From a virus (Duplodnaviria > Caudoviricetes), in the IMG/VR virus record IMGVR_UViG_3300022217_000228, positions 9,347-73,346 of that record: a DNA stretch of 64,000 nucleotides; one strand, 5' to 3'. Each line of letters begins with the position of its first letter. Position 1 is the first letter of the stretch. Positions 5,539 to 61,150 of this stretch are shown piece after piece. The notes under the pieces are model-generated. The model was not told where the DNA came from. It made no database searches and was given only the letters and a program-made list of their open reading frames with translations. Made by a program: the position numbers and the translations under genes.

Positions 5539-5545
5539 TAATATA

Positions 5546-7825: not shown

Positions 7826-9881
7826 ATATACCAACAAGTTAAAAGAGCTTCCCCCTGAAGCTTATGAGTATTACATGACTCACCCTGTGGAATTCGCACA
7901 GGAACAAATACTTGGGCTTTCACCTGATGATGTTAAGAAGGATCGGCTCTATCGGCGTTTAGAACCGCAAACCAAGTCTATTCTTTATAATATAGGGAAA
8001 CATGATTATGTGTCGGTGTTCTCAGGCCGGGGATGCACAAAAACCACATCGCTTGCCCTTGCAGCAATCTGGTGGATATGGACTCGCAATGACGCCAAGG
8101 TTATGGCAACTGGTCCTAAATTCGAACAATTAAAAATTACACTTTGGGCAGAGATAGCCAAGTGGCTTGATAAATCATATGTGAGTGATGAAGTGAAGCT
8201 AACAAGCGAACGCATATTCCATATCGATCCCAAGATGCATTCATTCGGTCAGATAATGACATCTAAGGAAAAAGATAACATGGCCGGTGTTCATGCCACT
8301 CACGTATTGTGGCTCATAGATGAAGCGTCGAATGTCGATCAGGATATTATCGACGCAATCTTTGGTGGTATGACAGACCCAGAGAGTAAGGTTGTGATGA
8401 CCGGTAATCCAACCAGAGCATCAGGTCCATTCTTTGATTCTCAAAACAAATTTAGAGACCAATGGAGGTGCCTGAGATTCAGCTCAGAAGATTCTGCGCT
8501 TAAGAATAAAGTGTGGTTTTCGAGGATGCTACGGTATCCAAAGGAGTCTGATATATTTAGAGTTTATGTATTGGGCTTACCACCACTTGGAAACCCAAAG
8601 GCCATTATATCACTTGCAGATTGCCACGCTGCTGTCAATCGTGAAACTCCTGCTGAAGACTATCTTGAAATGGGTGTGGATCCTGCAAGGGAAGGAAATG
8701 ATTTAACAGCCATAGCAATACGCAGAGGCATGAAACTTCTCGAAGTAAGGGTATATCCTAAGACTAAGGGCCCGGAAGTAATTGGATATACGCTTAAAAT
8801 GCTACGAGAATACCGTGCAAAGACAGGTATTAAAAGCAGGGTAAAGATAAAGATTGATGACCATGGGCTCGGCGGTCCGATCGGTGATGAGATGGCTTTG
8901 AATGAAATTGATAACATTGAAGTTATTCCATGCTTGTTTGGCGGTAAGGGTGACGATCGATATACAGATCCAGCATCAATAATGTGGTTCGGACTTGCTG
9001 ATATAATAAACGATGTAGAACTCTGTAACGATGAAGAACTCATTGAGGAGCTATCTACTCGTGAATGGAATCCTTCTTCCGGTGGAAGAATGCAGGTTGA
9101 GCCTAAAGCTAAATACAAAGAAAGGCTTGGAAGAAGCCCGGATAGGGCAGATGCAACAGTATTGTGTTATTACGGCGGAGCAAAGAAAGTCTTTGAACTT
9201 CCTGATATTATCGGTGAAAAAGAAAACGATTTTGAAATAGATTGGAATTACGAACACCTGACTGATGCATCGTATGGCGGTATATTCATGATAGATGTAC
9301 TACACTATGCAGCACTTGTATTTAATAAAGACTTGTCATTCAACGGATTAGCTGCAGTATATCAATACTACTCAGATAAGCTATGGATTTATGAAGAGTT
9401 TTACCAAGACAGGCCAGAGCCTGATGTTATAGCTCGTGTGGTTAGAGCACTTACTCATAAGGGGTTATACGATGATGACAGAGAAGTGCGAATAATTGGC
9501 AACGAACACATGTTCAGGCCAGATGGTGATCGTAGGCCGCTCTCAGACGTGCTTATACATGAGAAGCTATATATATCAGAACCATTGAGATACGATGAAT
9601 ATGGGGCAATAGCATTTGGCTCTAAGATGTTTTCTGAAAATAAAGTAACACTACATAGAAAACTCACGCGTGCACGTCCTGCAATAAGCCTTTGGTCTGT
9701 AAAAAAAGGAACGCCTGAAACCGATGAGAATGGATACTGTAAGGCATTTTTACTTATATTAAGTGAAGTGAGGAGAAGGGTAAAAGAACGAAAGACAAAG
9801 AGAACGCCTAAAGATTATTCTCCAGTACATGTGAAATCGAATGAGAGAGAAAAAAATATGAACTCTTGGTGTGGGAGATAA
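7800..9881 (+). CDS. terL: Terminase large subunit with C-terminal extension
   Basis: Walker A-like SGRGCTKTT, Walker B LIDEAS, 'TGNP' coupling motif, nuclease 'GVDPAREGND'. Confidence 0.9.
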   Translation: MAQMSLQPRYTNKLKELPPEAYEYYMTHPVEFAQEQILGLSPDDVKKDRLYRRLEPQTKSILYNIGKHDYVSVFSGRGCTKTTSLALAAIWWIWTRNDAKVMATGPKFEQLKITLWAEIAKWLDKSYVSDEVKLTSERIFHIDPKMHSFGQIMTSKEKDNMAGVHATHVLWLIDEASNVDQDIIDAIFGGMTDPESKVVMTGNPTRASGPFFDSQNKFRDQWRCLRFSSEDSALKNKVWFSRMLRYPKESDIFRVYVLGLPPLGNPKAIISLADCHAAVNRETPAEDYLEMGVDPAREGNDLTAIAIRRGMKLLEVRVYPKTKGPEVIGYTLKMLREYRAKTGIKSRVKIKIDDHGLGGPIGDEMALNEIDNIEVIPCLFGGKGDDRYTDPASIMWFGLADIINDVELCNDEELIEELSTREWNPSSGGRMQVEPKAKYKERLGRSPDRADATVLCYYGGAKKVFELPDIIGEKENDFEIDWNYEHLTDASYGGIFMIDVLHYAALVFNKDLSFNGLAAVYQYYSDKLWIYEEFYQDRPEPDVIARVVRALTHKGLYDDDREVRIIGNEHMFRPDGDRRPLSDVLIHEKLYISEPLRYDEYGAIAFGSKMFSENKVTLHRKLTRARPAISLWSVKKGTPETDENGYCKAFLLILSEVRRRVKERKTKRTPKDYSPVHVKSNEREKNMNSWCGR

Positions 9882-36454: not shown

Positions 36455-38611
36455 CTATCCCGGTATTGCAGGAGATTCATTTCCAAGTCTGTTTATATTC
36501 TGAACTCGCTGTTCTCTTTCCGTAGGCATTGATTGTTCTTGTGCAGGTCCGACGCTCATTGCTGCAGGTGTTGCTTGTTCTGGAATACTTGGCTGTTGTG
36601 CCCCTCCCTGCATTTTGGCCTGCATATTCTGCATCATTCCTTGAAGCTGCATCTGCATCGATTTCGCTTCCATTCCCTGTGCTTTTAATCCCTCGATTTG
36701 GGTGAACAGCGACAGTATATCACGCATTTCTTTAAGTGTTCGCATGCGCTCAATCTTCAACTGCTCTTCCGGTGTTCTTTCTATGGTACTGAGAAGATCG
36801 TATGTGAGCATCTGGATTTCCTCTTTAAACAATTCCGGATGAGCAGATAGCATCTTGGTTGTATCGAATAGTTCAAGCCTTTTCTCCATGCGTTTTGTCG
36901 GAGAAGATTTTGAAAGCCGAACAACAACTCTTGCGCGTGGAAGATCGCTTATTGAGTTTATATAAACCTTTTCCCTGCCTCCATTTTGATTCGTTCTAAA
37001 TGCAGGAACATTGAATTCAACCTCTCCGCTACCGCCGGCCATAGGGATTTTACGATACAAATCTTTGTACGAGATTTGAGCTTGGTTGTACCATGCTTCT
37101 GCCTTATCCATAAGGAATTGCTGCCAAGCACCGTATAGGCGTAGTGTTCCGAGCTTTGTGATTTCATGGCGCAATTCAAGAAGAATGCCAGATTGATCCC
37201 TTTCGGCAGCCCCTTCGAGTGCAGGAGTAACAGGCGTTACTCTATCAAGCAGGTCGATTATTTCATTAACCTGTCTAAAAATGTGCTCCGGAACTTGTCC
37301 AACTGGAAATAATGCAGCTACATTATCAGGAGGGCCATCAACGGCATGAACGTAATCAGGACGGGTTTTATTCTGCATTATTTTTTGAACACCCTGTTTG
37401 CCGCCAACTTTGTTTTGATCAACAAAGGTTGCTCCTGAAGCGGCAGCAGCAATAACGTCATCCATCTTTGATTGTCGATAATTAAGTGTTCTGTTTAAAT
37501 CGAGGCCGTATTCGAATACGCCTTTTCTTATACCAAACATTTTGTTGGAAGAGAATTCGAATAGACCTATCATCCCAGGTTGTGTAGGATGTTTTCCTCT
37601 GACGAAAACCAAATCAGGTGCAATTCCGGTTAGATCAGGTGATATAATACCATAATAAAGAATATTGTCTTCATACGGAAATTCTCTTATATCTGACCAG
37701 GTTATACCCGTTTTTTCCTTAAAATCACGTACTTGATCTTCCGTTACTTTTAATGGAAATGCAAACCACTCGCCAGTTTGCATTTTTGCATGTAGGCGAG
37801 TGGTTCTTAGCTTTTCAAGCCAACGGTATTCGGTAACGAGATAGCGTGATCCACTTTTTGTCGGCAGGTTTTCCCATGCCCGTACATCATCGCCTTCATT
37901 GGCGTAATCATAGCCTATCGCAAAATCACGTTCGGCGAGTTTTCTTACACTATCATCGCGGCAATCAAGCTCTTCTATCATCATTTCCGGAGTGAGGTAT
38001 CCGTCTATCATGGCCTTACGCCAGTTTCGTATCTCGTTGTCCTGCCAAAAAGGATCCGAAAGAACGGTTCCATCCGTGCAGTGCTTGAAACTTATTGCAC
38101 CTGTTCGTCTGATATCATAATCAAGACACATCATTTGTACACCGGAATGTAGTAACCCCGACATATTTGACTGATTATCTGCTGTTTCATACTTGTACTG
38201 ATCTTTATCGGCGAAATACCAATGCTTTATAGAGTCTATGAGCGTGTTTTCGTCTATATCCAATGCTTTAAAATCGAAATCGAAGCGTTCTGACATCAAT
38301 GAGCCACTTAGGGTTTCCATTTTTTGTTTTAATATATTTATACTTGTTGGGTGACGATCGGCGTTTAGTAGTTGGTTGCGTTCTGTTTCAGGCCACATTC
38401 CTCCGTTAATATCCATGAATGCCTGCATTGCATCATAATATCGTTCTCTTGAATCTTGATGACATGCAAGCCAGCGTGTGTGGAGATCTTCGACATGCCG
38501 AACGAATTCCCCATCAGATGAGCGCATCCGCATGGAGGTTTTAGTGTTTATGTTAGCTTTTTCTATCGGGAATTCTATGTCGGAAGTGAGATGTAGTGGA
38601 TACTTGTTCAT
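36455..38611 (-). CDS. Portal protein (P22-like size)
   Basis: 718 aa helical protein; 'GGMW...RHPTSINILKQK' N-terminus; Q/M-rich C-terminal barrel; first large gene of head module. Confidence 0.8.
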   Translation of the reverse strand: MNKYPLHLTSDIEFPIEKANINTKTSMRMRSSDGEFVRHVEDLHTRWLACHQDSRERYYDAMQAFMDINGGMWPETERNQLLNADRHPTSINILKQKMETLSGSLMSERFDFDFKALDIDENTLIDSIKHWYFADKDQYKYETADNQSNMSGLLHSGVQMMCLDYDIRRTGAISFKHCTDGTVLSDPFWQDNEIRNWRKAMIDGYLTPEMMIEELDCRDDSVRKLAERDFAIGYDYANEGDDVRAWENLPTKSGSRYLVTEYRWLEKLRTTRLHAKMQTGEWFAFPLKVTEDQVRDFKEKTGITWSDIREFPYEDNILYYGIISPDLTGIAPDLVFVRGKHPTQPGMIGLFEFSSNKMFGIRKGVFEYGLDLNRTLNYRQSKMDDVIAAAASGATFVDQNKVGGKQGVQKIMQNKTRPDYVHAVDGPPDNVAALFPVGQVPEHIFRQVNEIIDLLDRVTPVTPALEGAAERDQSGILLELRHEITKLGTLRLYGAWQQFLMDKAEAWYNQAQISYKDLYRKIPMAGGSGEVEFNVPAFRTNQNGGREKVYINSISDLPRARVVVRLSKSSPTKRMEKRLELFDTTKMLSAHPELFKEEIQMLTYDLLSTIERTPEEQLKIERMRTLKEMRDILSLFTQIEGLKAQGMEAKSMQMQLQGMMQNMQAKMQGGAQQPSIPEQATPAAMSVGPAQEQSMPTEREQRVQNINRLGNESPAIPG

Positions 38612-39658: not shown

Positions 39659-39791
39659 TTTCACAACGGTCCGCGAATATGTGCAGTGCTGGAGCCATCC
39701 GGCTTATTTACGCGCCTTTGGGCTGGTGCCGAAACCCGCATAATCCAACTTAGTAGCACAACCAGCATTGCATATATTCGCTGTTGTATGT
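39659..39791 (-). repeat. Solo attC-like site T
   Basis: (+) TTTCACAAC-GGTCC-GCGAATATGTGCAGTGCTGG ... CCAGCATTGCATATATTCGC-T-GTTGTATGT; same geometry as the array sites. Confidence 0.8.
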
Positions 39792-39916
39792 TGAAGGAGA
39801 TTTCCTCCATAGTGTAAAAGCGATATGTTAATTATTTTTCCCGGACGGAACGGCCTTATCCGATGTTCCGTATATTTGATAATTAACTCTCGGATGCGAT
39901 ATCGCATTACAACCAT
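39704..39916 (-). CDS. Solo cassette ORF (70 aa) reading into attC T
   Basis: AAGGAG RBS after GTTGTATGC cassette start; ends HTTANICNAG...KARK inside the hairpin. Confidence 0.5.
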   Translation of the reverse strand: MVVMRYRIRELIIKYTEHRIRPFRPGKIINISLLHYGGNLLQHTTANICNAGCATKLDYAGFGTSPKARK

Positions 39917-39940
39917 AAAAGAAATCTCCTTTTGCATACA

Positions 39941-39969
39941 ACTATATTAGTGTGAAATATATTATTCAA
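39941..39969 (-). promoter_or_regulatory. sigma70-like promoter TTGAAT-N17-TATAGT; -10 overlaps the G^TT cassette junction
   Basis: -35 at 39964-39969, -10 at 39941-39946, 17-nt spacer. Confidence 0.6.
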
Positions 39970-40001
39970 GTAATGCACTACATAATTAGAACAATGTCAT
40001 T

Positions 40002-46643: not shown

Positions 46644-47624
46644 TTATGACAAAATCATTTCTGCTTCGACATAGGAAGCACGCAACTCAGAAACATGATT
46701 AGTCGTCATTTTCTTTTTTAATTCAGGAGTTATTTCTTTTCCGAGTTTTTTTAAATCGTCCAGAGATTCGCACAATACAATTCTCCCTTTGTATTTTTTA
46801 AGAATTGTGGTAGATTCAGACTCTTTTAGTGCGTCTTCTTTGGTTATTTGTTCGGCGTCTATTGCTGCTGTTTCATCTTCTGATTTCATGGCAGCCTGCT
46901 TACCGCCAAGAAGAGGAAGAAGTGGCTTGATAAGGTTGTCATAATTAGGCGAAATTATTGTACGACCTGATAGTATCCCGGTGCGATCCTTCTCAGCAAA
47001 TGCTGTGATTGATGCCAAACCACCCTTTTTGTCTTTAGTTGACTCCATGTGCATTAGAATGTGTGGCTCGTATGGTGTTTCACCTTCTGCCTTCATTTTA
47101 GTGCCAATGTTTTTTAATTCGCCTGTTTCTTCATCTTCTTCGAAGTCGTTGCCCTGTCGACCGCATATAATCACATGCATTGGAGAAGAAAGAAGGTAAT
47201 TGATTAATTCTTTATAGGGTTTTTTGATTTTTCCCCAAGCATGAAAAGGAATCGTACCTGCTGATGTAATTTTTCCTTTGTATGCCTGTTTTGACGCTTC
47301 CCAGATGTGAGTTATAGAGTCTATGATTATTATTCCATACTCATTTGGATTAAGTCCTTTTACGTCGCTAATTACTTCTGTAATGGAGCGGGTATAATTA
47401 GCATCAAAATCAAAGGCTCTCGGGTGTACTTTTCTTTCCTCCACATCCTTGCAGTAAAAATCTGTTCCACGCTCAGTATCAACAAATGCTATTCGTTTTC
47501 CGGTAAACGCTGCTAATCCTTCGGCACATAGGAGCGCCGTAAATGTTTTCCCGCTTCCTGATTTCCCATAAAAACCGATTTTTAATGCTGCTTGCTCTGC
47601 CTTTGCTTTTCTAAATCCAGCCAT
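46644..47624 (-). CDS. AAA ATPase, Sak4/AAA_24-like recombination protein
   Basis: Walker A GKSGSGKT, 'FVDTERG', Walker B 'IIIDSITH'; start MAGFRKAK. Confidence 0.8.
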   Translation of the reverse strand: MAGFRKAKAEQAALKIGFYGKSGSGKTFTALLCAEGLAAFTGKRIAFVDTERGTDFYCKDVEERKVHPRAFDFDANYTRSITEVISDVKGLNPNEYGIIIIDSITHIWEASKQAYKGKITSAGTIPFHAWGKIKKPYKELINYLLSSPMHVIICGRQGNDFEEDEETGELKNIGTKMKAEGETPYEPHILMHMESTKDKKGGLASITAFAEKDRTGILSGRTIISPNYDNLIKPLLPLLGGKQAAMKSEDETAAIDAEQITKEDALKESESTTILKKYKGRIVLCESLDDLKKLGKEITPELKKKMTTNHVSELRASYVEAEMILS

Positions 47625-47637
47625 AATTAAATCCCTT

Positions 47638-47772
47638 TCACCTATTGCATAATTGTAAATGGACAAATCTTTCTTTAATCTCACAAAACGATTTTACCCA
47701 CTGCTTATCAGATTTTCTTTTAACCACGATTCCACAGTGTACACACCTGTATTTTCTGATTCGTATTTTCAT
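47638..47772 (-). CDS. 44-aa ORF inside site Z (MKIRIRKYRCVHCG...)
   Basis: ATGA-coupled to upstream cassette ORF; CxxC. Confidence 0.45.
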   Translation of the reverse strand: MKIRIRKYRCVHCGIVVKRKSDKQWVKSFCEIKERFVHLQLCNR

Positions 47773-47787
47773 TGCTGTGTTATAGGC
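47640..47787 (-). repeat. Degenerate terminal attC-like site Z
   Basis: R''-like GCCTATAAC at 47779-47787 matches its cassette start (GTTGTAGGC), but stem and R' are eroded. Confidence 0.4.
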
Positions 47788-47957
47788 TGTTGGCAAGATT
47801 CCTCATTTCTTAAAATGCGAGGACAATCACCCTCTTCACAACGATGTGTTTCGTTAATTCTCGACAAACAAACATAGCCCAAATTACCCCCATGACAGCG
47901 TTCACGCGCATTACAAAACCATTTGAATTTATCGAAATCTTCATTTAATAGAAGCAT
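47769..47957 (-). CDS. Cassette ORF, Cys-rich 62 aa
   Basis: Ends QQPITQQ across R''. Confidence 0.55.
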   Translation of the reverse strand: MLLLNEDFDKFKWFCNARERCHGGNLGYVCLSRINETHRCEEGDCPRILRNEESCQQPITQQ

Positions 47958-47986
47958 TTTACTCCAATCGTTTTGAATTGCCTATT

Positions 47987-48123
47987 GCCTACAACGTTTG
48001 CGAAATGTGCGCCGTTAAAACCTATAGCCACAATGAGGACACGATTCAACGGTATCCACCTTGATTAACTTACGACAACCAGGGCACGGCTCTTTTAATG
48101 GCGCACTTTCTGCTGTTGATGGT
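47987..48123 (-). repeat. attC-like site A
   Basis: (+) GCCTACAAC...AAATGTGCGCCGTTAAAA / TTTTAATGGCGCACTTT...GTTGATGGT. Confidence 0.8.
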
Positions 48124-48299
48124 TGTGCTACGGGTTCCACAGTGTAATCAGCGCTCGACAGGAAATTTTCCAACCCTCGTAATTCTGCCTGTGCTGCCCG
48201 TTCACAACCGAGTTTAACTTCATTACCTGCTAATTGTTCAACAGCTATACTACTGGAAATAACCTTTAATCTGGACTCGATATATTCTGATAGTTTCAT
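48015..48299 (-). CDS. Cassette ORF with attC-encoded zinc ribbon
   Basis: ...STAESAPLKEPCPGC...CPHCGYRF. Confidence 0.6.
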   Translation of the reverse strand: MKLSEYIESRLKVISSSIAVEQLAGNEVKLGCERAAQAELRGLENFLSSADYTVEPVAQPSTAESAPLKEPCPGCRKLIKVDTVESCPHCGYRF

Positions 48300-48334
48300 A
48301 ATTGCGTTTATCCAATCTATTTAAGAGTAGCATT

Positions 48335-48511
48335 TCCACCAACGGACTAGGCATCCGCCCGAAGTTGCCGTTCTAAAAATTCGTGATACATTTCTGCCAT
48401 AAAAACAACATCATCTTTAATGCCACCTGCTCCAATTTCCCACAAATATTCAATAAATGATTCCTTATTGTCTTCCCATAACGGCAATTTTGGGCTGCCT
48501 GGGTTGGTGGA
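48335..48511 (-). repeat. attC-like site B
   Basis: (+) TCCACCAAC...GGCATCCGCCCGAAGTTGCCG / CGGCAATTTTGGGCTGCC...GTTGGTGGA. Confidence 0.85.
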
Positions 48512-48628
48512 TGCGTTTTCGACCTTAGTTAAAGCTTCTTTTATGCGATACCACGAATCAATAACTTTTTCTGGGTGACAAATATATTTAAAACTTGAGT
48601 CTATCGTTTTTATGTCATCAGTAAGCAT
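48347..48628 (-). CDS. Cassette ORF translating the whole of attC B
   Basis: STNPGSPKLP...RQLRADA; stop 4 nt before the crossover G. Confidence 0.6.
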   Translation of the reverse strand: MLTDDIKTIDSSFKYICHPEKVIDSWYRIKEALTKVENASTNPGSPKLPLWEDNKESFIEYLWEIGAGGIKDDVVFMAEMYHEFLERQLRADA

Positions 48629-48653
48629 AAAAGACTCCAATCAACTGAACGTT

Positions 48654-48731
48654 TCCACCAACGTCTTGGCATACCAGAAGTGCGTCAGCATTTGGGAGAG
48701 GCTTCCGAACCTGCTATTGTTTGTTATAGGC
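48654..48731 (-). repeat. attC-like site C (weak stem)
   Basis: (+) TCCACCAAC...GCATACCAGAAGT / GCTTCCGAACCTGC...GTTATAGGC. Confidence 0.65.
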
Positions 48732-48737
48732 TGTTTG

Positions 48738-49271
48738 TCAACCATCCTTATTATCCTTTTTGGAGGCGGTCTTAGCATTAGCACAAAAATCTAACCATCC
48801 TTCCTTATTACCTGTTTTCAAAAATGGCTCTGCTGCGGCTAATACCTGAAGCGCGTTCGTGTAATATGTAAGACCTTCTCCGTGACTGCCCCAAAGGTTA
48901 GTAATTCCAAGGCAGGAAGCTAACGCCGATATCGTTGCCCCATGAGCAGACTGTAGAACATCAGAGCCGTTTTTGAATATCCAATCGAGGTTAGATTTTT
49001 GTGTAGCTTCTTCTTTCTCCTCATTTCCCCATTGCTGCAATAGATCCATACGATCCGATTGAATTAATTCTAATTGTTGCTCGTAATACCATGACGATTC
49101 GCCTCTACCTTTTATATGAATGGTATATTGTTGCGATTCGCGTTTACCGCCTCCATATTGGTCTTTATATGACCCAATTACAATAGCGTAACAGTCTGAT
49201 TCAAAATGTGACATCGTGGGACCGAGGTCTTTTATTACGTGAACAAAGTCTCCTTTGTGATATTTTTGCAT
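48738..49271 (-). CDS. Cassette ORF, 177 aa hypothetical
   Basis: GGAGG RBS; N-terminal 'KYHKGDFVHV' resembles SH3-like phage proteins. Confidence 0.65.
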   Translation of the reverse strand: MQKYHKGDFVHVIKDLGPTMSHFESDCYAIVIGSYKDQYGGGKRESQQYTIHIKGRGESSWYYEQQLELIQSDRMDLLQQWGNEEKEEATQKSNLDWIFKNGSDVLQSAHGATISALASCLGITNLWGSHGEGLTYYTNALQVLAAAEPFLKTGNKEGWLDFCANAKTASKKDNKDG

Positions 49272-49312
49272 TAGTAGCCTCCAAAACTACAATATAAAAC
49301 GGTTGATAAATT

Positions 49313-49451
49313 GCCTATAACGGTTTGCGAAATGGCCGAAGTAGTGCACCCGCCGAAGCTCCCGTTGAGCTTGCACTGTTTATGTCGGGTTAGTGCGCGG
49401 CCCACGTCGGAAGTATCGAGTGCACTATTTTGACCTTTCGCTGTTATTGGC
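49313..49451 (-). repeat. attC-like site D
   Basis: (+) GCCTATAAC...GCGAAATGGCCGAAGTAGTGCAC / GTGCACTATTTTGACCTTTCGC-T-GTTATTGGC. Confidence 0.88.
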
Positions 49452-49653
49452 ATGTTGTTGCCGATTCTATAGCCAACTTTTTTCGCTGGCGTTTATATTT
49501 AATACCTTTCCAACTTGAACAAAATCCATCGCTACTAGTACGAGTATCCTGTAAATCACAGATACCAGGATTGGCGAATTTATCGTTTACCCATTTAGTA
49601 TACCAAGTACAAGAACCGCATCGTTTTTTATGTATCAAAGCGAAAAACTCCAA
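49444..49653 (-). CDS. Cassette ORF, 69 aa Cys-rich
   Basis: CGSCTWY...GICD...FCSSWK; stop TAA lies inside the R'' box. Confidence 0.6.
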   Translation of the reverse strand: MEFFALIHKKRCGSCTWYTKWVNDKFANPGICDLQDTRTSSDGFCSSWKGIKYKRQRKKLAIESATTCQ

Positions 49654-49672
49654 TTCTCAAGAGGCAATAATT

Positions 49673-49753
49673 GCCCATAACGTTCGATGCTACCAGACGT
49701 TTTAATGTTCCGAAGGACAAGCGTCAGCGCCGCTGGTAGCATTTGTTGGCTGC
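49673..49753 (-). repeat. attC-like site E
   Basis: (+) GCCCATAAC-GTTCG-ATGCTACCAG / CTGGTAGCAT-TT-GTTGGCTGC. Confidence 0.82.
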
Positions 49754-49941
49754 TGTGCAGCGTGTTCCGCCATTGCTGCGGCGCATCTATCGGAAAATCG
49801 ATTAAGCGCCGACAATACTCCAGGTTCCAAACAGATACGATCTGTAGGGTTTTCATGATCATTTGCATGTAACCAGATAGCGTATCCATCAAAAAGACCA
49901 TAGACACCATCTCCGAGATAATCTTTCATTACAAATTCCAT
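49702..49941 (-). CDS. Cassette ORF, 79 aa (MEFVMKDYLGDGVY...)
   Basis: Reads into attC E; also in frame with an upstream GTG ORF spanning attC F. Confidence 0.6.
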   Translation of the reverse strand: MEFVMKDYLGDGVYGLFDGYAIWLHANDHENPTDRICLEPGVLSALNRFSDRCAAAMAEHAAQQPTNATSGADACPSEH

Positions 49942-49975
49942 TGCGCCGCCTTTCTGTAAATTTAAGAGCTGCATT

Positions 49976-50078
49976 GAACACAACGTTTCCAGGTTTGGTG
50001 AAGTGCCGCGTGTTTTTGCGGCATTTGCCGAAGGCCGAAGTGAGCTTGCGAACGGAGCACCAAACCTGTGTTGTAAGC
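49976..50078 (-). repeat. attC-like site F
   Basis: (+) GAACACAAC-GTTTC-CAGGTTTGGTG / CACCAAACCTG-T-GTTGTAAGC. Confidence 0.85.
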
Positions 50079-50105
50079 TGTAAACCTGCCCCTGCCTTTT
50101 GCCTT

Positions 50106-50294
50106 TCACGCCGCCGCCTTCTTTTTGTTCTTTTTAAAATATTCCTTCAGTATCACGGATACTGTCTTGTTTCCCGATCTCTCATCCTCTTTCGCCTTTT
50201 TATCTATCATCGTCCAAAGGTTTGATTCAAGATAGATGCTTCGTGACGTCATTTGACTTGTTTTCATATTTTCATCTATTTTGGTGTAAGACAT
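50106..50294 (-). CDS. Ribbon-helix-helix (Arc-like) DNA-binding protein
   Basis: 'SRSIYLESNLWTMIDKKAKEDERSGNKTVSVILKEY'. Confidence 0.6.
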   Translation of the reverse strand: MSYTKIDENMKTSQMTSRSIYLESNLWTMIDKKAKEDERSGNKTVSVILKEYFKKNKKKAAA

Positions 50295-50661
50295 TATGAA
50301 ATATATAAGACTTCCTCTTGCCTTTGTCCTCACTATAAATATTGCTGCTATCACACTTTATTGGAATAGCAATCCAAAGATCATTGTTTTTGTCGGGTTT
50401 ATTATACTTATCCTGCAAAGTTGTATCGAAATGTTGAAATGTCTTACTATTGATATTGACAATTGGCTCAAGTTTAAACTGTATAGAATTGACATCAAGC
50501 TGCTTAGATATCCTTCCAAAAAGGAGAAATACGATGCAAAAGAGAAGAACTATCGTAATAAGGCTAACAGGAGAGTAGTATTCGCTGAACCTGTCTTGAT
50601 AATACTGCAAGTCACGGTTTGTCTCGGTACCTTGTTTATTCTCTTTTGGGGAGCTATTCAT
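50272..50661 (-). CDS. Single-TM membrane protein
   Basis: AGAGG RBS; TM segment LITIVLLFCIVFLLFG. Confidence 0.45.
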   Translation of the reverse strand: MNSSPKENKQGTETNRDLQYYQDRFSEYYSPVSLITIVLLFCIVFLLFGRISKQLDVNSIQFKLEPIVNINSKTFQHFDTTLQDKYNKPDKNNDLWIAIPIKCDSSNIYSEDKGKRKSYIFHNVLHQNR

Positions 50662-50851
50662 TTTTCCTCTATTTTTTAACCTCATCATGCACTATTAAAT
50701 AATGTTAAAAATGATTATTCTTTTCAGTATGAAAACGTTGCTTCCTGGCTATCCGAGAATTATTAATAGCCATTGTTATCATTCATTTTATATTCCTTTT
50801 TATTCTAACTTGTCTTTCGGCGGCGTCTTCCTGTCTTCGGGCAGGTTTTTT

Positions 50852-50984
50852 GCTTACAACGGGTTGCCGCACTCGCCAGCAGTACCCCACCGGAATAGTT
50901 TGCATTACCGGCAGCCTCGCACTTCTCGAACGTAGCGATCTCGTCCCAGAGCTTGAGGTATTGCTGGCTGCGGCTGTTGTACGA
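50852..50984 (-). repeat. attC-like site G
   Basis: (+) GCTTACAAC...CCGCACTCGCCAGCAGTACC / GGTATTGCTGGCTGCGG...GTTGTACGA. Confidence 0.82.
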
Positions 50985-51119
50985 TGTAAAGTGAGCTTCC
51001 TTAGTGTAAGCACAATCCAGCTTCGGAAGAAGTCTAATTTCACTTTTTGAAAAGTGCTACGACTTGAAAGTCCACTGTTTGGTTTAATTGTGCTTATTAA
51101 CATGAAAGCTCACTTTATT

Positions 51120-51264
51120 TTGTACAACGGCTTCAGGCACCCGCCTGCCGTGGCCGATAGAAATCGTCTGCATCTCGAATACAATGATTTGCACCTAAAA
51201 GGCAACACTGCCCCTTTTTATTATCACAATCGTCAGGACATGGCAGGCTGCCTGGGTTAGAAGC
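51120..51264 (-). repeat. attC-like site H
   Basis: (+) TTGTACAAC...GGCACCCGCCTGCCGTG / CATGGCAGGCTGCC...GTTAGAAGC. Confidence 0.82.
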
Positions 51265-51456
51265 TGTGGGCTGGGTTCCGCTGCCTTTTGAAATTTTACG
51301 AAGTAACGTACCACCAAACATTAACGGATAAACACCTACAGCTTGCCCGGCATATAAAAAACTACACTTCCCAGGCTCCTTCAACTCTATTACAACCACA
51401 TCACCGACTTTAGAGTATCCGTTACCAGCTTCTCTATATCCCGGTATATTAATCAT
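51133..51456 (-). CDS. Cassette ORF translating the whole of attC H
   Basis: GGAGG RBS; ...ASNPGSLPCPDDCD...PRQAGA. Confidence 0.6.
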   Translation of the reverse strand: MINIPGYREAGNGYSKVGDVVVIELKEPGKCSFLYAGQAVGVYPLMFGGTLLRKISKGSGTQPTASNPGSLPCPDDCDNKKGQCCLLGANHCIRDADDFYRPRQAGA

Positions 51457-51492
51457 AGTAAAATTTCCTCCAATAAATTTAAGAGTCGCATT

Positions 51493-51650
51493 GCTTCTAA
51501 CGTTTGCGAAACGTGCGCCGTTACTTGAAACACGGTTTATTAGCATAACAATGTAGATTTTTATTTTTAATAGTACATTCATCATAATAACAACACGGCC
51601 TTGCGCTCCATTCTTCGTATTCTAATGGCGCACTTTCTGCTGTTGGATGC
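51493..51650 (-). repeat. attC-like site I
   Basis: (+) GCTTCTAAC...GCGAAACGTGCGCCGTTA / TAATGGCGCACTTTCTGC-T-GTTGGATGC. Confidence 0.85.
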
Positions 51651-51820
51651 TGTTGCTCGGCGCTCCCCTTGCCCTGCCGGGCTTCACCGCAGTACAATTC
51701 CATAACATCAGATACGTATAAATATCCACGCTTATCCCCATGAAAAGCTACCTTCACACTATTTAAACATGCATCGTTTAACTTATTATCGATTAAAAAC
51801 TTCTGTTCCTTAGATCCCAT
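51521..51820 (-). CDS. Cassette ORF reading through attC I
   Basis: ...HPTAESAPL...CCYYDEC...PCFK. Confidence 0.6.
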   Translation of the reverse strand: MGSKEQKFLIDNKLNDACLNSVKVAFHGDKRGYLYVSDVMELYCGEARQGKGSAEQQHPTAESAPLEYEEWSARPCCYYDECTIKNKNLHCYANKPCFK

Positions 51821-51865
51821 AAAAACTACCTTTTACCCGGCCTTTAACATGGCCGCCGAGCAATT

Positions 51866-51948
51866 GCCACCAACGGGTTGCAAAACGTATTTAGTGCGGT
51901 ACGCTCTCATACTGCCTCACCGCGTTGAATACTTTTGCTGTTATGGGC
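51866..51948 (-). repeat. attC-like site J
   Basis: (+) GCCACCAAC...GCAAAACGTATTTAGTGCGG / CCGCGTTGAATACTTTTGC-T-GTTATGGGC. Confidence 0.85.
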
Positions 51949-52622
51949 TGTAGCGCCCGATTCCTTATTTAAAACCGCAATGAGCTGTTCTCCGAGAAAC
52001 TGCGTGTAAGCCGGCGGTATAGCTTGCGTTAACTCTTTCCTCGTCATCCAATCTATGCCCATTGCGTTTCTCCACTCAATGACACTTCCCTTTGAGACAT
52101 CACGCATGACTGTCCCCCATGTTTTCCAACGACCTGCACCACCGGCAACAGAATAATAACCCTCTCCGATACGGCGACCGCGGTGTGATGGATGAGGAGG
52201 AATAAAAAAAAATGACTACAATCAAAATGGCGATGTCTGAAAACTTTTAAACCGAACATTAAACCACATAGCGTTATTGACTTATCAAGCGGAGCGCCTG
52301 GCACGTTTTCAACTACATATGGTATTCCAATTTTTTTTAATTCCGCAAGTGTCGGCGTAAGGTAATCAATATATTTTTTACCTCTGTTACGATGGACATT
52401 GGAAGCAATTGACCATTTCTGACATGGGGGAGAGGCATGTACTACATCGAATTCGTGATGATGATCCCGGAGATATTCCAGTGCATCAGATTGGATAAAC
52501 TCAAATGGATACCGTTTTTGAAAAACAGTATCGACACCTACGATCTGAGTAAAGCCGGCCCTGAAATAACCCTTCGCTGCTCCACCTCCACCACAGTACA
52601 AATCTAAAAGTTTCCAGCTCAT
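51907..52622 (-). pseudogene. C5 DNA cytosine methyltransferase-like cassette gene, frameshifted at a T9 tract
   Basis: 'LLDLYCGGGG', 'HASPPCQ', 'YVVENV', 'RHRHF'; C-terminal 'MGIDWMTRKELTQAIPP' continues in another frame after 52204-52212. Confidence 0.8.
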
Positions 52623-52652
52623 TGCCTATTTATTCTCCAAGAGGGCGGTATT

Positions 52653-52779
52653 GCCTATAACGTCTGATAAACGGGTGAAGTGTCTACCGGGTTTTTCGGC
52701 ACACACCGAGAGGGCTGCCACCTTTGACCTCATAGTATTCATTTGTAGAATCACATTTCACCCTTTATTTGTTGTGTAT
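52653..52779 (-). repeat. attC-like site K
   Basis: (+) GCCTATAAC-GTCTG-ATAAACGGGTGAA / TTCACCCTTTAT-TT-GTTGTGTAT. Confidence 0.8.
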
Positions 52780-52891
52780 TGGTTTTGCGCTTCCGCCATT
52801 TGGCAAAAACGACACACCAACACCATAACATATTTTTAGAATACTCAGTTGCTTCTTTACAGCCTATACACGGACACTTATCTTTTGCCAT
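52751..52891 (-). CDS. Cassette ORF, 46 aa Cys-rich
   Basis: GGGGA RBS; MAKDKCPCIGC...TNTQQIKGEM. Confidence 0.5.
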   Translation of the reverse strand: MAKDKCPCIGCKEATEYSKNMLWCWCVVFAKWRKRKTNTQQIKGEM

Positions 52892-52913
52892 ACAATCCCC
52901 AAAAGCAAAACTT

Positions 52914-53099
52914 GTACACAACGGTTTAGCAAGGCAGAAGTTTGCGACTACAATATGGGCAAAACTGCATACCGTCAATTGACAAAATTGATTGTACCAA
53001 TTCACCACAAGATGTATGAAAAAATCCACCATGCTCATTTTCCTTAATTTCCCACTCGCAAATTTCCGGAGGCGAAAGCTGCCTTGCTTTGTTAGCGGA
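52914..53099 (-). repeat. attC-like site L
   Basis: (+) GTACACAAC-GGTTT-AGCAAGGCAG / CTGCCTTGCT-TT-GTTAGCGGA. Confidence 0.82.
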
Positions 53100-53270
53100 A
53101 TGTAATGCGAGTTCATTAGCTTTTAAGGCGGCAACTATTTCCCGGTGAAAACCACCAAAAAGAGTTCTAAAATATTCACCCTTACCGTCTATCGATAAAT
53201 CAGATATTGCAGTGTTCAAGTAAGCTCCGAGCCTACCATTCCCTGGATCGCACATATTTGATATATCCAC
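52926..53270 (-). CDS. Cassette ORF with attC-loop-encoded Cys domain
   Basis: ...SANKARQLSPPEICEW...TSCG...FCPYCSRKLLPC. Confidence 0.6.
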   Translation of the reverse strand: MDISNMCDPGNGRLGAYLNTAISDLSIDGKGEYFRTLFGGFHREIVAALKANELALHSANKARQLSPPEICEWEIKENEHGGFFHTSCGELVQSILSIDGMQFCPYCSRKLLPC

Positions 53271-53307
53271 TTATTGCCGCCTTTATAATAAATCTAAGAG
53301 CATTATT

Positions 53308-53391
53308 TCCGCTAACGGATTGGCAAAGAGCCGAAGTGCGGTACACTCTCATATTTACTTACCCGCATTTTGGCTTTTGCCTGTTAGCGGT
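53308..53391 (-). repeat. attC-like site M
   Basis: (+) TCCGCTAAC-GGATT-GGCAAAGAGCCGAAGTGCGG / CCGCATTTTGGCTTTTGCC-T-GTTAGCGGT. Confidence 0.88.
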
Positions 53392-53406
53392 TGTTTTGAC
53401 CGCATC

Positions 53407-53724
53407 CTAATTATCCTTTCGGCGAACGGCGGTTACACACTCTCGATACTTAACCATCCAATCGCCACAGTCTTCATGTGCCCACGGATCATCTTTATAC
53501 TGTTCGTACAAGATGGAATCATGTTTCTTTAAATCATCTATAGTTGCATTATAGGCAAGAGGACAATCCCATGAATTACAGCATCCTGGCTCCTGCTTGT
53601 TCTTGAATTTAGACGCACAACCATAACCGCCGTTTGGTATATTATCACCTGTACAAAATAATCCGCATTCTCCAGATAAATTATCAATGTCTATTAAAAC
53701 TGGTACTATGTTTCTATATGCCAT
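53407..53724 (-). CDS. Cassette ORF, Cys-rich hypothetical
   Basis: GGAG RBS; 'GECG...GYGC...GCCNSWDCPLA'. Confidence 0.6.
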   Translation of the reverse strand: MAYRNIVPVLIDIDNLSGECGLFCTGDNIPNGGYGCASKFKNKQEPGCCNSWDCPLAYNATIDDLKKHDSILYEQYKDDPWAHEDCGDWMVKYRECVTAVRRKDN

Positions 53725-53767
53725 ATTTTCTCCAGTGAGCCGAACTACAATCTCAGCGGTCAAAATT

Positions 53768-53932
53768 GCCGCTAACGGTTTAGGTTAAAAGAAGTGCCGC
53801 CATAAAGCAGCGTTACATTCTATACCACCACGCGAAAGGCAAAAGCTGCATCCAGCTACCGGACATTCGGAACATGAGGGCGGCATTTGCGGAGCCGTAG
53901 CGTTAGCGGAGCTTTTAACCTTTGTTGTGTGG
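53768..53932 (-). repeat. attC-like site N
   Basis: (+) GCCGCTAAC-GGTTT-AGGTTAAAAG / CTTTTAACCT-TT-GTTGTGTGG. Confidence 0.8.
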
Positions 53933-54156
53933 GCGCTTCGCCGGACTGGTTTTGTTGACTCCACATTATCCAGTGATTCTATGAAAGCTGCTACTTGACG
54001 CAAGCAATCGGGACGCCACCAAGTTAGATCGTCGCTTATTAGACACCACCTTTTCTTTCGGCTTACCCACTCTTTATGTATACGGCCGATTGCAACTGTA
54101 CGATAACCAAAAACTGTAAACCCTTTATCGTCCGCTTCTATTTTTAGAGCTTTCAT
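53785..54156 (-). CDS. Cassette ORF reading through attC N
   Basis: ...SAHTTKVKSS...CSECPVAGCSFC. Confidence 0.6.
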   Translation of the reverse strand: MKALKIEADDKGFTVFGYRTVAIGRIHKEWVSRKKRWCLISDDLTWWRPDCLRQVAAFIESLDNVESTKPVRRSAHTTKVKSSANATAPQMPPSCSECPVAGCSFCLSRGGIECNAALWRHFF

Positions 54157-54187
54157 AAATCACCTTTAATATGGTTCAACAAAACTT

Positions 54188-54334
54188 GCGCACAACGTCT
54201 CAGGCACCCGCCCGAAGTTGCCGACACAGTTCATCGTAAAACTGCTGAGTTACCCACCTATGACGATCCTCTGCACCAGTAGCCTCAAACATCTCATCGT
54301 GTGTCGGCAATTTTGGGCTGCCTGTGTTGGTGGA
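54188..54334 (-). repeat. attC-like site O
   Basis: (+) GCGCACAAC...CAGGCACCCGCCCGAAGTTGCCGACAC / GTGTCGGCAATTTTGGGCTGCCTG-T-GTTGGTGGA. Confidence 0.88.
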
Positions 54335-54451
54335 AGTAAATTTTTCCTCCACCAGTTTTTTTATGCGGCCCCAAGCCTCCATCGGCCACAATTTGCCATA
54401 GCTAATGACCGCCTCTTCAACATCGGTAATATCCCCTTTGGTTATAAGCAT
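54200..54451 (-). CDS. Cassette ORF translating the whole of attC O
   Basis: STNTGSPKLP...RQLRAGA; same attC-derived peptides as 48347-48628. Confidence 0.6.
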   Translation of the reverse strand: MLITKGDITDVEEAVISYGKLWPMEAWGRIKKLVEEKFTSTNTGSPKLPTHDEMFEATGAEDRHRWVTQQFYDELCRQLRAGA

Positions 54452-54480
54452 ATACTACAATCTCCAGAGAAAAATTTATT

Positions 54481-54647
54481 TCCACCAACGGATTGGCGAT
54501 AACAGAAGTTACGCCGGTTGATAATTACTAAGACAATCTACCGAATTAATTTTCCACATACAATTAAGACCACCAACGCATCGTGAACAATTAGGCGTAA
54601 TTTCCCCTTCGGGCAAGGCTTCCGCCGTGTTATCGCCTGTTGTAAGC
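54481..54647 (-). repeat. attC-like site P
   Basis: (+) TCCACCAAC-GGATT-GGCGATAACA / TGTTATCGCC-T-GTTGTAAGC. Confidence 0.82.
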
Positions 54648-54844
54648 TGTGCTGACGCTTCCCCTTGTTCTGAGTTTGGCACCTCACGGGCAGGGCAATT
54701 ACTCGGTGGTAACATTGACGGGGCAATATCACATGTTTTTCCAGTACACCGTAACTCATCGGATCTTAACCCGCATTCGTCGGTATCACAACACCACCAT
54801 GGGCACTGCCCTACCGTAGAAAAGAAAACTATCGTATACTTCAT
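54509..54844 (-). CDS. Cassette ORF, Cys-rich, reading through attC P
   Basis: AGGAG RBS; QCPWWCC...PSNCP; tail CSRCVGGLNC. Confidence 0.6.
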   Translation of the reverse strand: MKYTIVFFSTVGQCPWWCCDTDECGLRSDELRCTGKTCDIAPSMLPPSNCPAREVPNSEQGEASAQLTTGDNTAEALPEGEITPNCSRCVGGLNCMWKINSVDCLSNYQPA

Positions 54845-54878
54845 TTGACAAACTCCTATGTTCTCAAAAGGAGGCATT

Positions 54879-54959
54879 GATTACAACGTGCTTGCGTTAA
54901 GTAAAGTTGCCTTAGCAATTTGGGAGAACGGAGCGAACTACTTAACGCATGTTGTAAGC
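54879..54959 (-). repeat. attC-like site Q
   Basis: (+) GATTACAAC-GTGCT-TGCGTTAAGTA / TACTTAACGCA-T-GTTGTAAGC. Confidence 0.88.
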
Positions 54960-54991
54960 AGTTCTCTACCGCTCCCCTAATTCAGCGAGGC

Positions 54992-55132
54992 TCACCCCCG
55001 CCAGATACTGCAATCCCATCTCGTTTTATATACTTGTTCGATGGTATCTTCTACTTCCAGTTCGTATATATCTTCGTACCCGCAACGAGGGCACTTTGTA
55101 AATCTTCGTTTCCGCTTTATAGTTTCTTTCAT
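54992..55132 (-). CDS. Cassette ORF, 46-aa zinc ribbon
   Basis: GAGG RBS; MKETIKRKRRFTKCPRCG...; read by hand. Confidence 0.5.
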   Translation of the reverse strand: MKETIKRKRRFTKCPRCGYEDIYELEVEDTIEQVYKTRWDCSIWRG

Positions 55133-55168
55133 TTCAGCCTCGCCTTATAATATGGCCGGTAGATAATT

Positions 55169-55248
55169 GATTACAACGTTAGCGCACAGCCGATGCAGTA
55201 CGCTTACCTGCCTTGCCCGACTGTTTCGGCTTGCGACGTGTTGTTGGC
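55169..55248 (-). repeat. attC-like site R
   Basis: (+) GATTACAAC-GTTAG-CGCACAGCCGA / TCGGCTTGCG...GTTGTTGGC. Confidence 0.78.
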
Positions 55249-55494
55249 TGTAAAAAGTGTTGATACCGCAGATTTCAAGCGGGTTGCTGACTTGCGCTCA
55301 CTTAACCATATGTTAAATACAAGCACATCGACTTCTTGGGTTGTCCACCGCTCCTTACAATCAACACACATCTTACGCCTCCTTATGCTATCAAAGCCCA
55401 TTATTTTAGACTTTCGCGAATCCATAACATAAATTTTAGTACCATCACAATTAGGACATTGTGTTGATGAAGATCCGTCAATAACATTCTTCAA
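55204..55494 (-). CDS. First cassette ORF: NrdR-N-terminal-like zinc ribbon
   Basis: CPNC...VMDSR...SIRRRKMCVDCKERWTTQE mirrors the NrdR pattern CPxC...VxDSR...IRRRRxCxxCxxRFTTxE. Confidence 0.7.
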   Translation of the reverse strand: MKNVIDGSSSTQCPNCDGTKIYVMDSRKSKIMGFDSIRRRKMCVDCKERWTTQEVDVLVFNIWLSERKSATRLKSAVSTLFTANNTSQAETVGQGR

Positions 55495-55533
55495 AGCAAG
55501 CCGCCTTTAATATGTTTTTCAACACTTTTTATT

Positions 55534-55563
55534 GCCTACAACTAGACGTTATGTGAAATATAC
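55534..55563 (-). other. attI-like site (or collapsed attC) at the head of the array
   Basis: (-) TATATTTCACATAAC-GTCTA-GTTGTAGGC: inverted core boxes with a 5-nt spacer and no hairpin. Confidence 0.55.
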
Positions 55564-55809
55564 ATCTCTATTTTTAATGTATTTAGGCGTAAATTGATCT
55601 AGATACTTATCGTCAAAGATTCGTTTTCCGTTCTTATCTTTAAGTGTTTTTAATTTTTCGATCCCGGCTATCAATAGAAATCTACCAGCAGAATGTTTCG
55701 ATCCCTGGTGCCCATCAACAACAGGGTACACCCTTTGAGATTGAAGGTAGCACAATTTTCGGAATTTTTCACTGCACGTTACATGTAATCCTTGTTTATG
55801 ATTATTCAT
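55549..55809 (-). CDS. 86-aa hypothetical protein, probably leaderless
   Basis: ATG lies 7 nt after the -10 box; stop TAA lies inside the attI-like box. Confidence 0.6.
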   Translation of the reverse strand: MNNHKQGLHVTCSEKFRKLCYLQSQRVYPVVDGHQGSKHSAGRFLLIAGIEKLKTLKDKNGKRIFDDKYLDQFTPKYIKNRDVYFT

Positions 55810-55938: not shown

Positions 55939-56166
55939 TTAACCGTAGCCGGAGCCGGAGCCGTAGCCGGAGCCGGAGCCGGAGCCGTCGCCGTCGCCGT
56001 AGCCGTAGCCGTCGCCGTCGCCGGAGCCGTAGCCGTAGCCGTAGCCGTAGCCGTCGCCGTCGCCGGAGCCGTCGCCGTAGCCGTCGCCGTAGCCGGAGCC
56101 GTCGCCGGAGCCGTAGCCGGAGCCGTCGCCGGAGCCGTAGCCGTATTTAATATTAATTTTGTTCAT
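55939..56166 (-). CDS. Gly/Ser/Tyr/Asp low-complexity protein (GYGSGDG repeats)
   Basis: Tandem CCGTAG/CCGGAG/CCGTCG hexamers at about 55943-56143. Confidence 0.7.
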   Translation of the reverse strand: MNKINIKYGYGSGDGSGYGSGDGSGYGDGYGDGSGDGDGYGYGYGYGSGDGDGYGYGDGDGSGSGSGYGSGSGYG

Positions 56167-60490: not shown

Positions 60491-61027
60491 TTATCCTTTG
60501 AACCAGGTGCCGTCCCATTTATAGAGATCGAACACGAGTTTATTGCTGGCGACTCCTATACAGTAGCAGTGTTTTGATAATCGGGTGTTCCTGAGGTATA
60601 CGGCGCCGGTGTTGATTTCACCGATTGCTGAGGCTTCTAAGACTATACAGGAGTTCCATCCTGGTGTTATACCGGATGTGTGGTATTCGATATTTGGAGG
60701 AGCTGTGGTTGGTCCGTTTTCTGGGATACCGATTTCGATTGGATACGGGATATTATATACACCGTGTGGTATCAGGGTTCCTTGTTTTCCGGTATCGATA
60801 TAGATGCTGCATTGTTGTGATGTGACGAATTTAACTACAACGCCGGCGTCTTCGTTGAATCCGATATCGCGGATGCTGTGTAGTACGGCAAATAGTTTAT
60901 CGGTTTCTGTTTGCAGTCTTTTGTGTTCGACTGTTTTTCGGTAGTTGGTGGTTGCCCAGCTTGCTATGATAGCGAGGATTAATACCGCTACCATCAGTTC
61001 CAGGAATGAAAAGCCCCGGTTATTCAT
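60491..61027 (-). CDS. Type IV pilin-like (FimT/GspH-type) prepilin
   Basis: Class III signal peptide MNNRG|FSFLELMVAVLILAIIASW (Gly -1, Phe +1, Glu +5); AAGGAGG RBS. Confidence 0.85.
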   Translation of the reverse strand: MNNRGFSFLELMVAVLILAIIASWATTNYRKTVEHKRLQTETDKLFAVLHSIRDIGFNEDAGVVVKFVTSQQCSIYIDTGKQGTLIPHGVYNIPYPIEIGIPENGPTTAPPNIEYHTSGITPGWNSCIVLEASAIGEINTGAVYLRNTRLSKHCYCIGVASNKLVFDLYKWDGTWFKG

Positions 61028-61055
61028 GAGTCCTCCTTGGTTGGTGTTTACATAG

Positions 61056-61084
61056 ATTGTACACTGATGTGGATTGGATTTCAA
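61056..61084 (-). promoter_or_regulatory. sigma70-like promoter TTGAAA-N17-TACAAT dedicated to the pilin gene
   Basis: -35 at 61079-61084, -10 at 61056-61061. Confidence 0.7.
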
Positions 61085-61088
61085 GCAT

Positions 61089-61114
61089 AAAAAAAGCCCG
61101 GTTGGATCCGGGCT
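61089..61114 (-). terminator. Intrinsic terminator upstream of the pilin promoter
   Basis: GCCCGG/CCGGGC stem followed by a T-run on the - strand. Confidence 0.7.
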
Positions 61115-61150
61115 GTTGTGGTAGTACTCCACAGGATGGCGATTAAATTA

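Follow-up and report, generated by a model that had tools for sequence, protein, structure and literature searches.

The IMG/VR virus record IMGVR_UViG_3300022217_000228 (73,346 bp; G000 below) is a phage genome estimated by CheckV to be 96% complete, with ends that are not closed. The window analysed here is the whole stretch from position 9347 to 73346 of that record (64,000 nucleotides, nt), and coordinates are those of the window unless another contig is named. It was identified as phage DNA from genes for the large terminase (7800–9881), the portal (36455–38611), virion proteins and a Sak4-like annealing protein (46644–47684), and glycosylation genes are also present. From the Sak4-like gene to the replication genes there extends a run of small minus-strand open reading frames (ORFs) with imperfect hairpins between them. 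This run (47779–55542, minus strand) holds 19 GTTRRRY-type boxes (G-boxes) alternating with 19 RYYYAAC-type boxes (A-boxes). We consider it very likely to be an integron-like array of 19 gene cassettes, formed by site-specific recombination in a phage genome of ~73 kb, rather than a classical integron.

Complementary ends of the cassettes

The G-boxes lie at 47779, 48115, 48503, 48723, 49443, 49745, 50070, 50976, 51256, 51642, 51940, 52771, 53091, 53383, 53924, 54326, 54639, 54951 and 55240, and the A-boxes at 47987, 48335, 48654, 49313, 49673, 49976, 50852, 51120, 51493, 51866, 52653, 52914, 53308, 53768, 54188, 54481, 54879, 55169 and 55534. Their GTT and AAC triplets are invariant, with G following AAC at 18 of the 19 sites and T preceding GTT at 17. 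A cassette extends from G|TTRRRYNN-AA, on its high-coordinate side, as far as the next crossover. A first-pass annotation, made from the sequence alone, had claimed that the start of each cassette matches the complement of its own downstream R'' box over 9 nt. Our recount gave an identical tally: the two boxes flanking a body match at 9/9 in six cases, 8/9 in nine, 7/9 in three and 6/9 in one (sum 153, mean 8.05, n = 19), and the four box pairs quoted as examples are all exact. Boxes within the same hairpin had been put at about 5.9/9 (range 3–9) and are found at 5.89, the level of random pairs (5.92 all against all). The cassette start complements its own R'', as in integrons, at 8.05/9 against 5.9/9. 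When partners were permuted, a check set beforehand as one able to refute the claim, none of 1,000,000 permutations reached 153 (mean sum 112.4, sd 5.25, maximum 143; z = 7.7), placing own-body matching far above random; the highest sum that any assignment of these boxes can achieve is 154.

The claim holds for the 9 nt, but these understate the effect. Positions 10 and 11 outward from GTT are unpaired throughout, with TT on the A side in 19/19 cases and TG on the G side in 14/19. Beyond them, at positions 12–21, own partners match at 7.05/10 as against 3.0/10 for others (z = 10.5; 0 of 200,000 permutations). The complementarity therefore runs to about 21 nt, and the two ends of a cassette make up a stem of ~21 bp with a fixed interruption, T.T plus T.G on the plus strand.

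Cassettes were also circularised in silico, the other check that the annotation had proposed, by attaching, to each hairpin interior with its G-box, the A-box that stands at the other end of the same cassette. Mean folding energy improves from −21.2 kcal/mol in the array form to −24.8 kcal/mol with the own box, a gain of 3.6 kcal/mol (Wilcoxon p = 2.5e-4), and the own box is the best of 19 for folding in 12 of the 18 rebuilt cassettes. From this pattern it follows that the units went in singly, in the manner of an integron. The junctions are direct evidence, in the sequence itself, of accessory genes brought together by site-specific cassette recombination; neither duplication nor homologous exchange would leave such a signature.

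Hairpin geometry, polarity and probable crossover point

As with integron attC sites, 18 hairpins of 78–186 nt, all on the plus strand, are bounded by RYYYAAC and GTTRRRY. The clearest example is H13 (53308–53391, 84 nt), with a 9-bp R box, a 4-nt bulge, 6 bp, a 1-nt bulge and a 13-bp stem; the AAC arm of H4 (49313–49451, 139 nt) likewise has a 4-nt bulge, 6 bp and a 1-nt bulge. The attC-like H1 (47987–48123, 137 nt), whose loop and arms encode the C-terminus of ORF 48015–48299, is a paralogue of H9 (51493–51650, 158 nt). H2 (48335–48511, 177 nt) has arms in common with H15 (54188–54334, 147 nt) and with copies that accompany unrelated ORFs in two other contigs, L003 and L005. H3 (48654–48731, 78 nt) folds weakly and was missed by the hairpin scan, which within the window recovered 17 of the 18 sites from the plus strand as against only about five from the minus strand. 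The remaining sites are H5 (49673–49753, 81 nt), H6 (49976–50078, 103 nt), H7 (50852–50984, 133 nt), H8 (51120–51264, 145 nt), H10 (51866–51948, 83 nt), H11 (52653–52779, 127 nt), H12 (52914–53099, 186 nt), H14 (53768–53932, 165 nt), H16 (54481–54647, 167 nt), H17 (54879–54959, 81 nt) and H18 (55169–55248, 80 nt). At the tail of the array, a degenerate last site (47719–47787, plus strand) has its G-box at 47779, a possible AAC at 47725–47727 and no significant fold (z 0.53). One solo cassette lies outside the array (39659–39975, minus strand) and consists of a hairpin (39659–39791), a body, a start box (39937–39945) and an attI-like head (39946–39975); its own ends match at 8/9.

On the plus strand nearly all hairpins have the same order of parts: RYYYAAC, G, a 3–4-nt bulge, 6 bp, a 1–3-nt bulge, a long stem and loop, and T-GTTRRRY. 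Read on the strand antisense to the ORFs, the bulges sit on the AAC arm in 62 of 69 hairpins (334 unpaired nt against 133), and this strand is the more stable in 63 of the 69, drawn from six loci (mean 3.1 kcal/mol, p 8.6e-11; 199 G.T pairs against 95), although hairpins outside the window were found with a detector tuned to this geometry and strand, and biased accordingly. On folding energy only, then, the bottom strand is the preferred folded substrate, as in integrons. Canonical attC sites carry extrahelical bases opposite the AAC triplet on the bottom strand, the first and last of them 6 bp apart (Nivina 2016, PMC5027507). In the hairpins described here the bulges lie mainly on the AAC arm instead and the central spacer is not two-sided, but the 6-bp spacing between bulges is kept. 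C-G and the 3–4-nt bulge would together provide a central region of 5–6 nt on the cleaved strand alone; in the double-stranded attI-like site described below, AA| and the left arm are likewise 5–6 nt apart.

The annotation had also argued that these are not plain terminators, and we agree: the better-folding strand is antisense to the genes and boxes within a hairpin pair no better than random, which excludes plain terminators. No T-runs follow the hairpins.

Four facts fix the polarity of the cassettes. The ORFs lie on the minus strand, often running through the hairpin and ending just ahead of the A-box; the solo cassette has its hairpin downstream of its ORF, towards lower coordinates, and a start box at 39937–39945 that stands bare; in related loci the recombinase gene is followed by ...CATAACTTA|GTT, a leader and the ORF of the first cassette, with no intervening hairpin; and in a duplicated cassette of contig L022 (84% identity) G|TT is the exact starting point of the homology. 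This makes the minus strand the top strand and the plus strand the bottom strand, with the crossover at the plus-strand A-box (AA|C). The minus-strand reading of the annotation, with cassettes starting at the higher coordinate, was correct, and its proposal that crossover between G and TT of circular cassettes produces the pattern also stands, the pattern fitting a hairpin site of the type G|TT (AA|C on the other strand). Folding does not decide between A-box and G-box crossover models, since circles rebuilt under either gain about 3.5 kcal/mol. Linkage of box to hairpin interior is greater for the G-box (4.6/6) than for the A-box (3.0/6), a comparison of few, non-independent pairs that is suggestive only.

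The further claim of fairly recent mobility is not supported. A conserved mismatch and an outer stem form part of the complementarity, and together with compensatory differences between cassettes these features suggest that own-end pairing is probably maintained by selection on the excised form; complementarity of this kind cannot date events.

Related arrays, their recombinase and the attI-like site

A 26-nt pattern from the H15 arm, containing the 20-mer CGGCAATTTTGGGCTGCCTG, led to a second phage array (L003), and the 20-mer alone led to L005, a 9.3-kb contig of a metagenome-assembled genome; a 22-mer from the H1/H9 arm had no match in viral contigs. The same 20-mer, with three similar hairpins, also occurs at 6959–7966 of L009, a 168-kb contig binned as a Thermoplasmatales archaeon. 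The own-end signature is present in L003, L005, L020, L021 and L022 (permutation p from <1e-5 to 0.017), most of which are clearly phage, and the TG/AA interruption recurs in all five.

In L005 a gene for a 288-amino-acid (aa) tyrosine recombinase lies directly upstream of at least 13 cassettes, on the same strand. The layout of recombinase, TTCAYCATAACTTA|GTT and array is found in all four homologue loci for which DNA is available (L005, L020, L021 and L022), and the consensus, TTCAYCATAAC-TTA|GTT, directly follows the recombinase stop codon. The sites heading these arrays would be attI-like insertion sites. In L020, L021 and L022 the neighbours are phage genes (terminase, portal, DNA ligase, GIY-YIG endonuclease), and two more homologue contigs have phage-type neighbours such as RecT, RecU and holin.

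The array-adjacent recombinases of the four contigs are XerA-like proteins of 273–288 aa. The clade to which the L005 enzyme belongs consists of metagenomic homologues (48–88% identity, 273–312 aa) with no close relative in cultured phages; its next relatives outside phages are XerA-like recombinases of DPANN archaea, at ~40% identity. The best solved structures for the L005 protein are XerA 4a8e and 5hxy, and with archaeal XerA 4a8e it forms one unbroken alignment. With VchIntIA (2a3v), residues 11–184 and 210–272 align to 6–182 and 244–306, and the gap between these segments means that ~36 aa of IntI-specific insert are absent from the L005 recombinase, the one recombinase aligned in this way. 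It scores below the cut-offs of both TIGR02249 (149 bits, cut-off 265) and XerA_Arch (202 bits, cut-off 220), the latter being its best NCBIfam model. An IntI with the additional domain is seen neither in G000 nor beside the array of L005, whose enzyme is insert-less. On the criterion that defines integron integrases, this recombinase does not belong among them.

In G000 itself the main array begins with an attI-like head (55543–55575, minus strand), which reads TATATTTCACATAACGTCTA|GTT on the minus strand and resembles the TTCAYCATAACTTA|GTT of L005, L020, L021 and L022. The motif TATATTTCACAYWAW...TA|GTT is carried by all three array heads of G000, namely those of the main array, the solo cassette and a satellite in L004 (G000 positions 1–9400), and within the window it occurs, at 0–1 mismatch, only at the two array heads. 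The three heads are followed by 19, 1 and 2 cassettes respectively. The two-cassette satellite (about 4582–5274 of L004) occupies the opposite strand and has an attI-like head of its own; box matches between own ends are weak there, at about 5/9, and one of the hairpins shares 74% identity over 185 nt with an L022 site. Among the larger non-structural ORFs in G000, Pfam scans revealed no other recombinase or transposase, and an 86-aa ORF at the array head, considered as a recombinase remnant, proved to be unrelated and was rejected.

Proposed assembly and contents of the array

Read on the minus strand, a cassette begins immediately behind the crossover G with TTRRRYNN-AA and about 10 nt, continues with one small ORF and ends with about 10 nt, CA-NNRYYYAAC and an imperfect hairpin with C-G at its close. 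In the excised circle, the putative intermediate, one stem would have as its two arms the initial ~21 nt of the cassette and the ~21 nt that precede the hairpin. Insertion by a single crossover at G|TT, with single-strand cleavage presumed to fall at AA|C of the plus strand (the bottom, better-folding strand), would split this stem, leaving the ends of each cassette matched to each other and the two boxes of a hairpin, which come from different cassettes, matched at random. The enzyme that acted here would be a short XerA-like tyrosine recombinase without the IntI-specific insert.

Several observations weigh against this reading. No circular junction or empty site has been seen, and two contigs with Sak4 relatives (L001 and L002) lack an array, synteny and any empty site for comparison. 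For IntI1, bulges on the AAC arm disfavour that strand (Nivina 2016, PMC5027507), and the bias of the hairpin detector has already been mentioned. Searches of G000 with PF00589 and with the L005 protein found no tyrosine recombinase; with three attI-like heads and no recombinase gene, the phage would depend on an enzyme acting in trans, or would have lost its own. Finally, a single crossover point does not explain two sites in L021 (10927–11069 and 11693–11836) that share a 135-nt interior, from ...CCAAC to GTTG..., identical but for one indel: their boxes and bodies differ, and the own ends of each neighbouring body match perfectly. Gene conversion between interiors, exchange at AAC as well as GTT, or a cassette-creating process are all possible, and the pattern hints at hairpin interiors that can assort independently of gene bodies.

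An unlikely alternative to capture by a phage system is that the array is a classical integron fragment (CALIN) from a bacterial host, with cassettes built and moved by canonical IntI. Virulent phages are known to harbour CALINs of at least two attC sites, and five of six phage attC sites tested are recombined by IntI1 (Qi et al. 2023, PMC9892861); among the features of integrons are moreover the R''/R' consensus, the AACG...TGTT ends and own-end complementarity. Homologous arrays, however, lie beside an insert-less XerA-like recombinase within phage contigs, the bulges occupy the non-canonical arm, with a one-sided bulge as central spacer, and a single phage has three heads bearing a conserved motif. 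The cargo also argues otherwise: three other phage contigs carry homologues of cassette gene C4 (48–59% amino-acid identity) as ordinary genes outside any cassette, and the cargo is therefore phage-type.

Still less probable is a tandem row of inserted miniature transposons, one per ORF, with terminal inverted repeats of ~21 nt and with the hairpins between them as target or spacer DNA only. Every body does have its own inverted repeat, and the identical interior between unrelated bodies in L021 would suggest body plus boxes as the unit, but the repeats are cassette-specific rather than family-wide, which fits recognition of structure over transposase-bound sequence, and their conserved parts are only GTT/AAC and the AA/TG dinucleotide. 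Target-site duplications were not seen, no transposase was found in G000, and arrays grow from one fixed site beside a tyrosine recombinase gene. We give slightly less credence again to the idea that the complementarity serves long-range pairing, such as 5'–3' stems in mRNA acting as RNase III-type processing sites or terminators. A stem of 9 + 10 bp with a 2 x 2 internal loop would suit RNase III in size, and in the window alone stem mismatches show no strand bias (12 G.T against 10 A.C); at the other loci, however, they are biased (16 G.T against 4 A.C). The hairpin interiors fold better antisense to the mRNA, the fixed mismatch is T.T plus T.G on the antisense strand but A.A plus A.C in RNA, and the structure goes together with a recombinase gene and an attI-like site, with no T-runs to mark terminators.

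Site-specific cassette recombination can also be set against other known systems. Small accessory ORFs in the hyperplastic regions of T4-type phages have repeated structured flanks (PeSL) and are thought to be shuffled as cassettes, by a proposed mechanism of homology between near-identical promoter and stem-loop repeats. The hairpins of the present array, by contrast, vary in length and sequence, with only short motifs in common; its sites share AAC/GTT and shape, and its junction signature needs a fixed crossover point. The attP(+) hairpin of CTX phage, which mimics a core site, is used by the Xer enzymes XerCD, and irregularities in its central region limit the reaction to a single strand exchange. 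There, however, a whole phage genome integrates at dif with host enzymes, whereas here many small cassettes would be shuffled at a phage-borne site. Integrons, sedentary chromosomal ones included, resemble the present system in their co-oriented single-ORF cassettes, RYYYAAC/GTTRRRY hairpins, G|TT crossover, better-folding bottom strand and an insertion site (putative here) beside the recombinase gene with an AAC-N3-GTT layout. They differ in that the relatives' recombinase has no ~36-aa IntI insert, is closer to archaeal XerA and is co-oriented with the cassettes, in the ~10-bp outer stem beyond the R box with its fixed T.T/T.G interruption, in the translation of ORFs through the hairpin and in the phage nature of the replicon. 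Seventeen CALINs have been reported in phages (Qi et al. 2023, PMC9892861), which likewise comprise attC-type arrays with no integrase nearby and a methyltransferase-like cassette. Those cases need only at least two sites and were read as components of bacterial integrons, whereas here there are 19 + 1 + 2 cassettes, and relatives show a dedicated phage-borne recombinase of another type. We found no paper on a Xer-type recombinase with such arrays.

On balance, we lean towards the view that phages carry their own cassette-capture system, parallel to integrons. Such a system would combine an insert-less XerA-like recombinase and folded single strands with an own-end R arm (9-bp box, T.T/T.G interruption and ~10-bp outer stem), a one-sided central bulge of 5–6 nt on the cleaved strand and possibly exchange at AAC as well as GTT. 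Taken with the recombinase-bearing relatives, the array would represent a second route to an integron-like platform, with a different enzyme and site geometry. This bears on the evolution of integron integrases from Xer recombinases and on phage trade in small host-takeover or counter-defence genes, and it yields rules for recombination sites that are structure-specific and can fall within coding sequence.

Searches for relatives of the phage gave little: neither megablast of the array nor tblastn of the portal matched GenBank phages, the array had no match in Rfam, and the large terminase of G000 is only ~35% identical to terminases of Firmicute phages. As regards cassette contents, several cassettes have a common leader after the start box (48311–48344, 49952–49985, 51469–51502 and 53284–53317), reading AATGC.ACTCTTAAAT...ATTGGAG on the minus strand, and L005 cassettes have an analogous one; it may be a promoter or ribosome-binding module. 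Translated hairpin arms place the peptides STNTGSPKLP and RQLRAGA on otherwise unrelated proteins (48347–48640, 54200–54451 and 6905–7222 of L003), and other hairpin loops encode Cys-rich or zinc-ribbon ends, with UPF0547 and NrdR-type matches. Cassette C11 (51907–52622, minus strand) encodes a C5 cytosine methyltransferase fragment that covers only profile positions 2–87 of 324 and adjoins an A9 run (52205–52213) and an overlapping 66-aa ORF; a frameshift or truncation may have affected the gene. In the stretch from the array head to the replication genes, a 75-aa ORF (55939–56166, minus strand) consists almost entirely of 6-nt repeats (GCCGTA/GCCGGA/GCCGTC on the plus strand) that encode Gly-Tyr/Gly-Ser/Gly-Asp, and a further minus-strand ORF (60491–61132) has a type IV pilin-like N-terminal methylation motif.

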